64,000 bases of DNA, taken from positions 139,562,001-139,626,000 of the forward strand of contig OZ024740.1 in the NCBI GenBank assembly GCA_964016885.1, read 5' to 3'. The DNA is from Eledone cirrhosa. Taxonomy: Eukaryota. The position numbers and the translations under genes were made by a program. This document shows, piece by piece, positions 18,208 through 24,648 of the stretch (its first letter is position 1; each line of letters opens with the position of its first letter). The notes below the pieces were generated by a model. That model worked only from the letters and a program-made list of their open reading frames with translations. It did no database searches and was not told the DNA's origin.

Positions 18208-19895
18208 TTGGAATAAATGCTCTGAAATAGCGATATATATGTGAATATAGACATAGAATATTCGAAAATATTCTGTATGTTTATAATAAACATTTTGAAG
18301 ACCTAATCGCTATAGAATAGAATACGTCACGTATTACAATTAGATTCTCGATAAAAGCAAGGGAAGTAATCTACGCGTTTCATTCTCGTTAGAAATCATC
18401 AGGACTACATATCCAGTGCTTTTATCGAGAATGACACAGCTAGAGACTTATAGAATACTTAGCTGTGTACAGGAACTGGTTTGAAAGAGCGGTTGCCGGT
18501 CCGGCAGAAATTAGAAATTGGAATAAATGCTCTGAAATAGCGATATATATGTGAATATAGACATAAAATATTCGAAAATATTCTGTATGTTTATAATAAA
18601 CATTTTGAAGACCTAATCGCTATAGAATAGAATACGTCACGTATTACAATTAGATTCTCGATAAAAGCAAGGGAAGTAATCTACGCGTTTCATTCTCGTT
18701 AGAAATCATCAGGACTACATATCCAGTGCTTTTATCGAGAATGACACAGCTAGAGACTTATAGAATACTTAGCTGTGTACAGCTGTGCACTGGATATGTA
18801 GTCCTGATGATTTCTAACGAGAATGAAACGCGTAGATTACTTCCCTTGCTTTTATCGAGAATCTAATTGTAATACGTGACGTATTCTATTCTATAGCGAT
18901 TAGGTCTTCAAAATGTTTATTATAAACATACAGAATATTTTCGAATATTCTATGTCTATATTCACATATATATCGCTATTTCAGAGCATTTATTCCAATT
19001 TCTAATTTCTGCCGGACCGGCAACCGCTCTTTCAAACCAGTTCCTGTACACAGCTAAGTATTCTATAAGTCTCTAGCTGTGTCATTCTCGATAAAAGCAC
19101 TGGATATGTAGTCCTGATGATTTCTAACGAGAATGAAACGCGTAGATTACTTCCCTTGCTTTTATCGAGAATCTAATTGTAATACGTGACGTATTCTATT
19201 CTATAGCGATTAGGTCTTCAAAATGTTTATTATAAACATACAGAATATTTTCGAATATTCTATGTCTATATTCACATATATATCGCTATTTCAGAGCATT
19301 TATTCCAATTTCTAATTTCTGCCGGACCGGCAACCGCTCTTTCAAACCAGTTCCTGTACACAGCTAAGTATTCTATAAGTCTCTAGCTGTGTCATTCTCG
19401 ATAAAAGCACTGGATATGTAGTCCTGATGATTTCTAACGAGAATGAAACGCGTAGATTACTTCCCTTGCTTTTATCGAGAATCTAATTGTAATACGTGAC
19501 GTATTCTATTCTATAGCGATTAGGTCTTCAAAATGTTTATTATAAACATACAGAATATTTTCGAATATTCTATGTCTATATTCACATATATATCGCTATT
19601 TCAGAGCATTTATTCCAATTTCTAATTTCTGCCGGACCGGCAACCGCTCTTTCAAACCAGTTCCTGTACACAGCTAAGTATTCTATAAGTCTCTAGCTGT
19701 GTCATTCTCGATAAAAGCACTGGATATGTAGTCCTGATGATTTCTAACGAGAATGAAACGCGTAGATTACTTCCCTTGCTTTTATCGAGAATCTAATTGT
19801 AATACGTGACGTATTCTATTCTATAGCGATTAGGTCTTCAAAATGTTTATTATAAACATACAGAATATTTTCGAATATTCTATGTCTATATTCAC
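18208..19895. mobile_element. Hammerhead-ribozyme tandem array 1: 310-bp units in two head-to-head arms (retrozyme-like), inserted in (TA)n
   Basis: CTGATGA cores at 18804, 19114, 19424 and 19734 on + give a period of 310. Two more on - lie at 18366-18408 and 18676-18718. Inversion junction ~18782. Confidence 0.92.
18798..18840 (+). ncRNA. Type I hammerhead ribozyme (representative of 6 copies in array 1)
   Basis: gtagtc-CTGATGA-t[ttct aacg agaa]t-GAAA-cgcg-TA-gattac. Stem I gtagtc/gattac, palindromic stem III, predicted cleavage after 18834. Confidence 0.88.
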
Positions 19896-20193
19896 ATATA
19901 TATATATATATATATATATATATATATATATATATATAGTACGTTATTCCGGGTTGAATCGGAGGTAACCACAGTAAGTAAGGTACTCAATACATAGCAG
20001 AGTATGATTTCTAATGAATGAAACAGTTCTAGTCCTGTAGAATCTCATCTATATTAAAACTATATATATATATATATATATATATATATATATATATATA
20101 TATATATATATATATATATATAGAGAGAGAGAGAGAGAGAGAGAGAGAGAGAGAGAGAAATATACACGGTGTGTATGATTGTGTATAGAAGAT

Positions 20194-20437
20194 TATATTA
20201 ATAAAAGGAATTCCAACTTTATCTGATTTACTCGTTTTATTTACAATCCTTTAAAATTTATAATGGTATTAGAATGAAATAGTATGGTAGAATATTAAAT
20301 TTTAAGTATTAATGGTCAATTAACACTTAAAATTTAATATTCTACCATACTATTTCATTCTAATACCATTATAAATTTTAAAGGATTGTAAATAAAACGA
20401 GTAAATCAGATAAAGTTGGAATTCCTTTTATTAATAT
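20194..20437. repeat. Near-perfect ~245-bp palindrome ending in (TA)n
   Basis: tattaataaaaggaattccaactttatctg... / ...cagataaagttggaattccttttattaata, centre ~20315. Confidence 0.9.
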
Positions 20438-21361
20438 ATATATATATATATATATATATATATATATATATATATATATATATATATATATATATATTGG
20501 GGAGGGATATGTGTATATGTGTGAGTGCATGCCAGCGCACACACATATACATATACAAGCATCTCAACAAACTGACACGCATTACACATACACAAATTAG
20601 CATTCACCGCTAAGGTCGTATGACTATTCATAAAACATCTGACAGTTATAAATGTACTGAGACAACAGAGGTGAGCCTGTATCCTAAGTGGAATCGTGGG
20701 ATGTATGTGTTTGTAGTGATGAGTGGACAGATGCAGTTTATAGAAATAGGTGACAGCTGAAAGGCTAGTAGTGTGACAGTGGTTATCTCTGGTCAATATT
20801 GAATTATCTTGGAGTAGGGCAATATAAGGAGTTATGGGAAAATTGCAAGAGGTCGAGCCAGCGGTGAAATAGTAAGAGGTTTTTTTTCACTCCAAAGTCG
20901 GTCAATTTTCTGGTGATGAAGTGGGCTAGGGCGGGTTTTAGGTTCCGCTATACGGAAGACTGGACACAAAGAAATACAAGAAAATATAAGGTCCTGGACA
21001 ACTATAACGTTTATGAGGAGAGGGACAGACATACACACATATATATATATATATATATATATATATATATATATATGATATATATGTATATGAGGAGGTG
21101 TGGGTTGGGGTGGGTGCGTGTGTGCGTGTGTGTATGTATGCATATAATATATATATATATAAATGTGTATCCCGGGTTCAATCGGAGGTACTCAATACGT
21201 AGTAGTGTATAAATGTTTAATATAGAAAACAAGAAGCCATTCCTATATTAAATTGTCCTTAACACTATGACTTATTAAAATAATATAAACAACTCACTAT
21301 CCGGATGGCTTCCAAAAATAATGGTTGCATTTAAATAGGTACGTAAAACTGTTATATATTG

Positions 21362-21989: not shown

Positions 21990-22368
21990 ATGGTGGTTGC
22001 CAACTCGTTTTCGAGTACGGCCACTACTTTATATCCATGTAACCCCTACCGATGCGCTGAACGAGTGTGACTTTTTAGTCCAGCCAGCGACTTGAAAACT
22101 CTGATACAAACACTACACTTGTGACAATTATTGACACAGTGCTGGGCCCATGGTACGGTACCATGTGACGACAAGTGCAGAGAGATCTCCAGATATAAAG
22201 CAATGCCTGTGCCTTGAAGCTTTTATAGTCAGCAAAGGCACTGCACAAAGCCAGTCCCACTCTCTTAACCAAGATGATATTTACCAAAAAGAAGAACAAG
22301 TCAACATCATTGGATACCATCCGAGTTGCAGGTGTTATATCAGAGCTTTCCTTCTAGAATTCTGCCTT
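21990..22368 (-). mobile_element. Non-autonomous RTE-derived element, 5'-truncated copy
   Basis: High identity to 31050-31640, 33597-34205 and 53752-54262. Confidence 0.75.
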
Positions 22369-22642
22369 ATACATATATATATATAAATGTATATATTATA
22401 TATATATATATTGTATATATATGTGTGTGTGTGTATACATTCATTCTTATAGTAATTTATTTTTTACTGGTTATGGAACTTTTGTCGATCCGCTGAATTT
22501 TCCGACAGAGTATATGCTCATTACCGGACTAAACACGAGAAACAATTTATAGACAGATGGCATATATTAACAAACACAAGTTCAAATACAATCACATACT
22601 CCACCCTCAATATATATATATATATATATATATATATATATA

Positions 22643-24648
22643 TTGGAATAAATGCTCTGAAATAGCGATATATATGTGAATATAGACATAGAATATTCGA
22701 AAATATTCTGTATGTTTATAATAAACATTTTGAAGACCTAATCGCTATAGAATAGAATACGTCACGTATTACAATTAGATTCTCGATAAAAGCAAGGGAA
22801 GTAATCTACGCGTTTCATTCTTGTTAGAATTCATCAGGACTACATATCCAGTGCTTTTATCGAGAATGACACAGCTAGAGACTTATAGAATACTTAGCTG
22901 TGTACAGGAACTGGTTTGAAAGAGCGGTTGCCGGTCCGGCAGAAATTAGAAATTGGAATAAATGCTCTGAAATAGCGATATATATGTGAATATAGACATA
23001 GAATATTCGAAAATATTCTGTATGTTTATAATAAACATTTTGAAGACCTAATCGCTATAGAATAGAATACGTCACGTATTACAATTAGATTCTCGATAAA
23101 AGCAAGGGAAGTAATCTACGCGTTTCATTCTTGTTAGAATTCATCAGGACTACATATCCAGTGCTTTTATCGAGAATGACACAGCTAGAGACTTATAGAA
23201 TACTTAGCTGTGTACAGGAACTGGTTTGAAAGAGCGGTTGCCGGTCCGGCAGAAATTAGAAATTGGAATAAATGCTCTGAAATAGCGATATATATGTGAA
23301 TATAGACATAGAATATTCGAAAATATTCTGTATGTTTATAATAAACATTTTGAAGACCTAATCGCTATAGAATAGAATACGTCACGTATTACAATTAGAT
23401 TCTCGATAAAAGCAAGGGAAGTAATCTACGCGTTTCATTCTTGTTAGAATTCATCAGGACTACATATCCAGTGCTTTTATCGAGAATGACACAGCTAGAG
23501 ACTTATAGAATACTTAGCTGTGTACAGGAACTGGTTTGAAAGAGCGGTTGCCGGTCCGGCAGAAATTAGAAATTGGAATAAATGCTCTGAAATAGCGATA
23601 TATATGTGAATATAGACATAGAATATTCGAAAATATTCTGTATGTTTATAATAAACATTTTGAAGACCTAATCGCTAAACATACAGAATATTTTCGAATA
23701 TTCTATGTCTATATTCACATATATATCGCTATTTCAGAGCATTTATTCCAATTTCTAATTTCTGCCGGACCGGCAACCGCTCTTTCAAACCAGTTCCTGT
23801 ACACAGCTAAGTATTCTATAAGTCTCTAGCTGTGTCATTCTCGATAAAAGCACTGGATATGTAGTCCTGATGAATTCTAACAAGAATGAAACGCGTAGAT
23901 TACTTCCCTTGCTTTTATCGAGAATCTAATTGTAATACGTGACGTATTCTATTCTATAGCGATTAGGTCTTCAAAATGTTTATTATAAACATACAGAATA
24001 TTTTCGAATATTCTATGTCTATATTCACATATATATCGCTATTTCAGAGCATTTATTCCAATTTCTAATTTCTGCCGGACCGGCAACCGCTCTTTCAAAC
24101 CAGTTCCTGTACACAGCTAAGTATTCTATAAGTCTCTAGCTGTGTCATTCTCGATAAAAGCACTGGATATGTAGTCCTGATGAATTCTAACAAGAATGAA
24201 ACGCGTAGATTACTTCCCTTGCTTTTATCGAGAATCTAATTGTAATACGTGACGTATTCTATTCTATAGCGATTAGGTCTTCAAAATGTTTATTATAAAC
24301 ATACAGAATATTTTCGAATATTCTATGTCTATATTCACATATATATCGCTATTTCAGAGCATTTATTCCAATTTCTAATTTCTGCCGGACCGGCAACCGC
24401 TCTTTCAAACCAGTTCCTGTACACAGCTAAGTATTCTATAAGTCTCTAGCTGTGTCATTCTCGATAAAAGCACTGGATATGTAGTCCTGATGAATTCTAA
24501 CAAGAATGAAACGCGTAGATTACTTCCCTTGCTTTTATCGAGAATCTAATTGTAATACGTGACGTATTCTATTCTATAGCGATTAGGTCTTCAAAATGTT
24601 TATTATAAACATACAGAATATTTTCGAATATTCTATGTCTATATTCAC
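22643..24648. mobile_element. Hammerhead-ribozyme tandem array 2: 310-bp units in two head-to-head arms, inserted in (TA)n
   Basis: HHRs on - at 22801, 23111 and 23421; on + at 23861, 24171 and 24481. Junction ~23677. Same outer ends as array 1. Confidence 0.92.
23861..23903 (+). ncRNA. Type I hammerhead ribozyme (representative of 6 copies in array 2)
   Basis: gtagtc-CTGATGA-attct aaca agaat-GAAA-cgcg-TA-gattac. Perfect 5-bp stem II, predicted cleavage after 23897. Confidence 0.9.

Follow-up and report, generated by a model that had tools for sequence, protein, structure and literature searches.

Insertions of Penelope-like elements (PLEs) show a recognisable anatomy, with an inverted truncated copy, a tail of 30-40 bp that often stands at one end only, and a bias towards (TA)n (PMC8557442, PMC3846280). 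PMC3846280 gives a tail of 31 bp. A purified PLE protein of the anole cuts and extends both target strands; its reverse transcriptase (RT) has two start sites within the RNA, which delimit the tail, and ribozyme cleavage is not required (PMC11167929). The retrozymes of animals that lack long terminal repeats (non-LTR retrozymes) have units of 150-450 bp (Cervera and de la Pena 2020, PMC7229834; Li, Clavereau and Pollet 2026, bioRxiv 10.64898/2026.07.22.740005). In the available parts of PMC7229834, PMC7761336 and bioRxiv 10.64898/2026.07.22.740005 the enzyme that moves them is inferred only from shared ribozymes, from co-occurrence and from the phylogeny of pseudo-long terminal repeats (pLTRs). 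The same preprint leans to local amplification for retrozyme arrays, and 8 of the 9 predicted elements in it did not cleave. Here, we describe two arrays in a 64,000-nt stretch of Eledone cirrhosa DNA (assembly GCA_964016885.1, contig OZ024740.1, positions 139,562,001 to 139,626,000, forward strand; the window in what follows). Both are head-to-head multimers of one 310-nt unit and each sits in (TA)n. By anatomical analogy, the 32-nt offset between their outer ends matches the known one-sided Penelope tail, here on what is predicted to be a retrozyme; a first-pass annotation of the DNA had not identified the offset as this tail. This suggests that the repeats were inserted as ready-made multimers by known Penelope-type machinery.

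Results

The window is AT-rich, microsatellite-dense DNA that carries eukaryote-type retroelements. The parts of the two arrays are listed below, with unit positions counted from u1 at window position 18209 and the strands of the arms quoted in ribozyme (RNA) sense.

18168..18208: (TA)n target, left of array 1
18209..18240, minus strand: one-sided tail of array 1, 32 nt, u1-u32, contains the ATATATAT tract
18209..18782, minus strand: left arm of array 1, 574 nt, 1.85 units, u1 to u264
18783..18786: CTGT, 4-nt insert at the inversion junction of array 1
18787..19895, plus strand: right arm of array 1, inverted, 1109 nt, 3.6 units, u211 to u33 (short end)
19896..19938: (AT)n target, right of array 1; its first 8 nt are also matched by the unit
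22610..22643: (AT)n target, left of array 2
22644..22675, minus strand: one-sided tail of array 2, 32 nt
22644..23677, minus strand: left arm of array 2, 1034 nt, 3.3 units, u1 to u104
23676..24648, plus strand: right arm of array 2, inverted, 973 nt, 3.1 units, u75 to u33
24649..24711: (AT)n target, right of array 2, followed by (AG)n up to 24788
23861..23903, plus strand: type I hammerhead motif, example copy, predicted cut after 23897

The repeats have a period of 310 nt with 99-100% matches between them, and within each arm the copies are 99.8-100% alike. All four arms are longer than one unit, and all four outer ends adjoin (TA)n of 17-31 units. The first-pass annotation had described outer ends, junctions and copy numbers, and we find this description accurate to within one base. 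Inversion points and copy numbers do differ, as it had said: the junctions lie at u264/u211 in array 1 and at u104/u75 in array 2, with 1.85+3.6 and 3.3+3.1 copies. The longer arm is the right one in array 1 (+535 nt) and the left one in array 2 (+61 nt). At the junction of array 2 the arms overlap by 2 nt, a TA microhomology; the CTGT insert in array 1 may be a local templated copy and can be read as such in three ways. Array bins have 32-34% GC, and no stop-to-stop frame of 100 amino acids lies inside the arrays (one begins in the last 40 nt of array 2). The arrays are thus not an autonomous Penelope-like element; they are non-coding, and the RT/GIY-YIG frame of the window is a separate element.

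The outer ends are fixed and offset. Both left ends fall on the same base of the unit, and so do both right ends. Going inward, the arrays are identical for 178 nt from the left ends and for 146 nt from the right ends, each time up to the first diagnostic variant; going outward, identity is confined to the TA runs (34 and 43 nt). If ends were distributed uniformly on the unit, two insertions would share both of them with a chance of 1e-5 for exact ends, or 3e-4 with boundary ambiguity allowed. Measured from one last unambiguous base to the other, the offset is 32 nt, of which the last 8 are the ATATATAT tract. It becomes 33 nt if the left boundary is set at 18208, as in the first-pass annotation, and about 26 nt if all target-matching bases are assigned to the element. 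The right (short) end adjoins ATATATAT at u25-32, in good agreement with the earlier statement that the ends are about 30 nt apart and that the right one coincides with the unit's tract. This is the longest of eight alternating A/T tracts in the unit, the next longest measuring 5 nt.

Read inward from the outer ends, both arms are antisense to the ribozyme strand, as expected of cDNA primed from two target strands. Relative to the predicted ribozyme cut, the outer ends are placed 131 and 163 nt downstream. Thus neither would be an RNA end and both sites would be internal, and we reject the ribozyme cut as the origin of the outer ends. The earlier idea that one end marks a fixed RNA 3' position is not supported, since no RNA end is predicted other than that made by the hammerhead, 131 or 163 nt away. 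By predicted accessibility the short site does not stand out (unpaired 0.48, with 35% of windows equally open), and the long site does so only mildly (0.77, top 9-11%).

Contigs from a public sequencing run (X2; 584 contigs, loose ends being 6 of 27 listed) bear on the same ends. The best-supported loose end, with 9 contigs, is at window 22978, which is u25, and follows directly on an AT run. In one contig a TA run stands before 22947, at most 7 nt from the left (long) end, and another contig ends on a TA run at u134. These loose ends agree with the fixed outer ends and lend them independent, though thin, support.

The two arrays also differ in ways that point to two insertions. A BLAST comparison of the 1-kb flanks gave four short matches (52-68 nt, 77-83%), none of them left-to-left or collinear from an array end. 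Array 1 has C179/A187 in 6/6 copies covering the sites and array 2 has T179/T187 in 6/6, so that each array carries its own u179/u187 variant, fixed in both arms. A private change is found at 18566 in the left arm of array 1. In run X2 the two sites vary, at 25% and 78% of summed contig depth. The family is therefore mixed, yet each array is uniform across both arms. Unrelated flanks, together with a fixed two-site variant of its own in each array, show that there were two insertions. The first-pass annotation had treated the arrays as independent and had named a segmental duplication as the finding that would speak against this; flanks and variants did not bear the duplication out.

The unit carries a type I hammerhead motif, which is present in 12 copies, 6 per array, with stems I-III in 12/12 of the unit copies that cover it. 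It consists of a 6-bp stem I, CUGAUGA, a 4-5-bp stem II, GAAA, stem III and a GUA cut site. Stem III is very short (1-2 bp) with a palindromic ACGCGU, and stem I is prolonged by a 16-bp perfect inverted repeat. The ribozyme sense points outward in both arms. A motif scan of the window gave 14 matches, 12 of them in the arrays, and 20 shuffles together gave one. The unit fold has z = -4.2, and stems I and II are present in the predicted fold (z -5.2). The difference at u187 places a U-U pair at the base of stem II in array 1 and an A-U pair in array 2. Size, tandem layout and motif fit a predicted non-LTR retrozyme. Rfam matches to miRNA families were rejected as by-products of the palindromes and microsatellites; all are sub-threshold.

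In run X3, whose kind is not on record, the unit is one closed 340-nt contig; a low-coverage tandem DNA repeat would give the same. Two single-contig loose ends in run X2 at window 23114-23115 (u161-162) read as 1-nt insertions. They lie at most 3 nt from the predicted cut and may have arisen by miscopying at a ligation junction, or by chance. Between 70 and 100% of the unit's words occur in 20/24 listed sequencing runs, which span 18 organism codes and 17 studies and include no RNA run. Two DNA runs from one of these organisms (X21 and X22) yielded 0 reads, a result that we take as uninformative. Relatives, diet or cross-contamination by an abundant repeat could each account for this spread, and we draw no conclusion on horizontal spread. 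Exact unit-pattern scans gave no match in metagenome contigs, prokaryote genome contigs or viral contigs.

The short end was compared with its target at further loci. Seven other loci of the window hold inverted elements in which one arm adjoins a microsatellite and the other runs on. They were hand-picked, and the loci correspond to 10 of 32 inverted-repeat rows; left out were 15 trinucleotide-repeat rows, 6 dispersed or low-complexity pairs and 1 pair around a TA run (60801). With element boundaries placed strictly and the two arrays counted as one locus, the short end matches its target in 8/8 tailed loci, by 8, 5, 2, 3, 5, 3, 3 and 2 nt. This sum of 31 nt was reached in 0/200,000 null draws (null mean 0.5 nt). 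The long end of the arrays also shows a weak target match (2 nt; 5 of 7). The earlier proposal that the short end anneals to the target by microhomology gains support from the short-end matches, but cutting by a nuclease at a tract that resembles the target would look similar. In two copies of other families (26445-26777 and 21344-21474) the short end occurs without an inverted arm, which is expected if the short end is itself a priming site.

Other features of the window

20159..20433: palindromic element of another family between the arrays, 120-nt arms, 5-nt loop
48232..50085, plus strand: Penelope-like RT + GIY-YIG frame, one internal stop

The element at 20159..20433 has an anatomy like that of the arrays, with a one-sided extension of 35-40 nt and a 5-nt target match at its short end. 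The PLE frame shows that this class of machinery is present in the genome. A degenerate hammerhead-like stretch lies close by, around 50480-50510.

Outside the arrays there are 12 loose hammerhead-core matches, of which two (21370 and 26689) pass a strict stem test; hammerhead-like cores were noted at 21370, 24847, 26689, 45866, 46891, 57740, 60969, 62220 and 62395. Several of these stand in inverted, microsatellite-flanked elements, and the region seems to hold several PLE-related non-coding families. At 62113-62502 there is a perfect 390-nt palindrome without a loop and with one outward-pointing hammerhead-like core per arm; it has a truncated relative at 21344-21474. A dispersed family of short hairpin-bearing elements is found at 52008-52185, 24793-24977, 19944-20068, 6125-6282, 21186-21228 and 55895-55997. 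Its hammerhead-like core at 24847 resembles that of the 310-nt unit, and two of its copies flank the right ends of the arrays just beyond the microsatellites. Another dispersed repeat has four copies that are 88-96% alike, with one fixed end by (AT)n or (ATAC)n (21961-22368, 31031-31763, 33479-34226, 53771-54291). A 649-aa frame at 36275-38224 with an RVT_1 and a weak zf-RVT match is a LINE-type fragment, and 12364-14512 is a 14-bp minisatellite with 153 copies and 96% matches.

Discussion

The explanation that we favour, and hold to be probable, is that a Penelope-like RT/GIY-YIG protein copies the unit, a non-autonomous hammerhead retrozyme, with priming from the two target strands and a template common to both. 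What can be read directly from the DNA is the anatomy, the ribozyme motif, the two insertions and the single variant per insertion, and from these we infer the following steps. RNA of the unit, as a circle or an uncut multimer, would be bound by the protein, which would nick both strands of a (TA)n run. From each nick a cDNA would then be primed, at one or the other of two internal sites that are fixed, lie 32 nt from each other and are far from the ribozyme cut. The short site might be aligned by pairing of AUAUAUAU in the RNA with the target, the long site having a weak match only. Each of the two cDNAs would extend inward beyond the length of one unit, and their template would most likely be a single RNA molecule or transcripts from one source locus. 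Microhomology or a short insert copied from a template would finally connect their 3' ends, so that a head-to-head array results whose tail stands at one end.

The two cDNAs of an array were probably not independent, because both arms share one variant and the inner ends lie close together on the unit. On the 310-nt unit the inner ends are just +53 nt (array 1) and +29 nt (array 2) apart; the probability of such closeness is about 0.03 one-sided and 0.12 two-sided, computed post hoc with n=2. The first-pass annotation had proposed independent cDNAs of random length, and the common variant and the distances of 29 and 53 nt put this part of its model in doubt. A speculative and rather unlikely form of the favoured explanation has one dimeric complex of Penelope RT and endonuclease (EN), with two polymerases on a single circular 310-nt RNA. 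They would start at sites 32 nt apart, one of them aligned telomerase-style by AUAUAUAU on (TA)n, and both would roll round the circle until they stop, queued one footprint apart. Queued polymerases on one circle would explain the shared variants, the unequal copy numbers and the inner ends that are 29-53 nt apart. If this were true, the arrays would preserve in the genome a direct record of PLE machinery reverse-transcribing a retrozyme by rolling circle.

In our ranking, two-strand priming on a shared template is followed by fold-back, nuclease resolution of a DNA intermediate, later amplification, and duplication or artefact. We regard fold-back as unlikely. Here, a single cDNA primed at the long end would fold back, copy its own strand outward and stop where ATATATAT is annealed to the other TA side, with copy numbers changing later. 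The small inner offsets of the same sign (29 and 53 nt) and the variant common to both arms fit this course, and fold-back from the long end predicts the copy number of the right arm of array 2 exactly. Palindromes with loops of about 0-5 nt occur at three other places in the window (62113, 20194 and the centre of 45450), and self-priming has been inferred for Penelope from junction palindromes (PMC3846280). However, the right arm of array 1 is two whole units too long for it, and a single fold-back does not give either arm as the longer one. The private change at 18566 is unmirrored, though it may be later. Short ends are seen on non-inverted copies of other families, and in vitro both strands are extended (PMC11167929). 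Fold-back from the short end was also considered and fails for array 2, where the left arm is longer.

Alternatively, the short end might be a cut rather than a start, if the endonuclease that nicks (TA)n also nicked ATATATAT of the unit in a DNA intermediate and thereby resolved it. The tract is a miniature copy of the target, PMC8557442 ascribes the tail to EN-mediated resolution, and the tail is needed for EN recognition in D. virilis, as reported in PMC11167929. Yet the in vitro work in PMC11167929, which is the later, maps both tail ends to RT starts, and the two loci that abut (AC)n or (TC)n match their own local target by 3 nt each, which suits annealing better (n = 2). We therefore judge a cut to be improbable.

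A still fainter candidate is that a short inverted piece was inserted in PLE fashion and that local amplification through unequal exchange gave rise to the tandem copies later. Such amplification is proposed for retrozyme arrays in the discussion of bioRxiv 10.64898/2026.07.22.740005. Recent amplification is also expected to give homogeneity within an array, and the 2-unit excess of array 1 could be a change of this kind. The four arms, all longer than one unit and with copies 99.8-100% alike within each, speak against it; an arm shorter than one unit has no direct repeat to amplify, so that one arm or more must already have been longer than a unit when inserted. Last, one insertion that was segmentally duplicated, or an amplification or assembly fold-back artefact, is highly improbable and the duplication is rejected, for although the outer ends are identical, the arrays lie just 2.7 kb apart and array 2 is a nearly perfect 2.1-kb palindrome, there is no common unique flank, junctions and fixed variants are unlike, and the short end is found again in run X2. 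An artefactual fold-back would moreover mirror the flanks, and the flanks of the arrays are not mirrored.

Several observations weigh against two-strand priming of a retrozyme by Penelope-type machinery. There are two arrays (n = 2), and fold-back accounts at least equally well for the small inner offsets and for the copy number of array 2. The Rfam hammerhead match is sub-threshold, at 23 bits against 52, and concerns array 2 copies only. Not only were the seven other loci hand-picked, but they may not derive from PLEs, and an extension of 30-40 nt is seen in just 1/7 of them; in the other six it is 61-95 nt, values that are upper bounds reaching to the next microsatellite. A target-site duplication is unreadable inside a TA run. 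Between the unit and the one PLE found here there is no DNA similarity, and the window yielded no autonomous partner; with no sequence in common, the PLE at 48232 is rejected as a demonstrated partner. Finally, the short end of the arrays has an 8-nt match to the target, whereas the anole starts are not homologous to the cut DNA (PMC11167929).

Retrozymes, their proposed PLE origin (bioRxiv 10.64898/2026.07.22.740005) and the tail are already in print, while the combination described here was not found in the published texts as far as they were available. Literature listings with abstract openings, and term look-ups in three retrozyme papers, gave no tailed, inverted retrozyme multimers; supplements, including the integration model of PMC7229834, may show them. 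In the main texts of PMC7229834, PMC7761336 and bioRxiv 10.64898/2026.07.22.740005 the word 'tail' has 0 occurrences; 'inverted' has 0 in PMC7229834, 1 in PMC7761336 and 1 in the preprint, both in reference titles. The anatomy of the insertion ends adds evidence of a different kind, which points towards multimers integrated in Penelope fashion. The surprise is limited, as the tail would be familiar to any PLE specialist. How Penelope inverted repeats and tails originate is still debated, and arrays like these, with multimeric arms that carry marker variants, can tell twin priming and fold-back apart.

Comparison with known systems

In the twin priming of LINE-1, two cDNAs start from the two target strands, run inward and are joined by short microhomology, so that an inversion results. 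There the first primer makes use of the poly(A) end, while the position of the second site is variable. In the arrays, by contrast, both sites are fixed and internal, and each cDNA would be longer than one template unit.

With the retrozymes in the published descriptions available to us the arrays have several features in common: the 310-nt unit is non-coding and tandem, low in GC, has one type I hammerhead per copy and strong self-pairing, and a PLE is present in the same genome. The weak stem III with its palindromic loop recalls axolotl motifs that are described as cleaving best as dimers. Unlike the retrozymes in those descriptions, the multimers here form two inverted arms whose ends in (TA)n are fixed and offset.

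The arrays resemble the complex tandem or inverted insertions of endonuclease-bearing PLEs (PMC8557442, PMC3846280, PMC11167929), which have a head-to-head inverted truncated copy, a 30-40-bp one-sided tail (32 nt in the arrays, 2/2) and a (TA)n target, and in both the ends are internal to the RNA, downstream of the hammerhead cut. The arrays differ from these insertions in what lies between the ends: there is no reading frame and no body of pLTR, open reading frame and pLTR, and both arms are multimers of a short unit.

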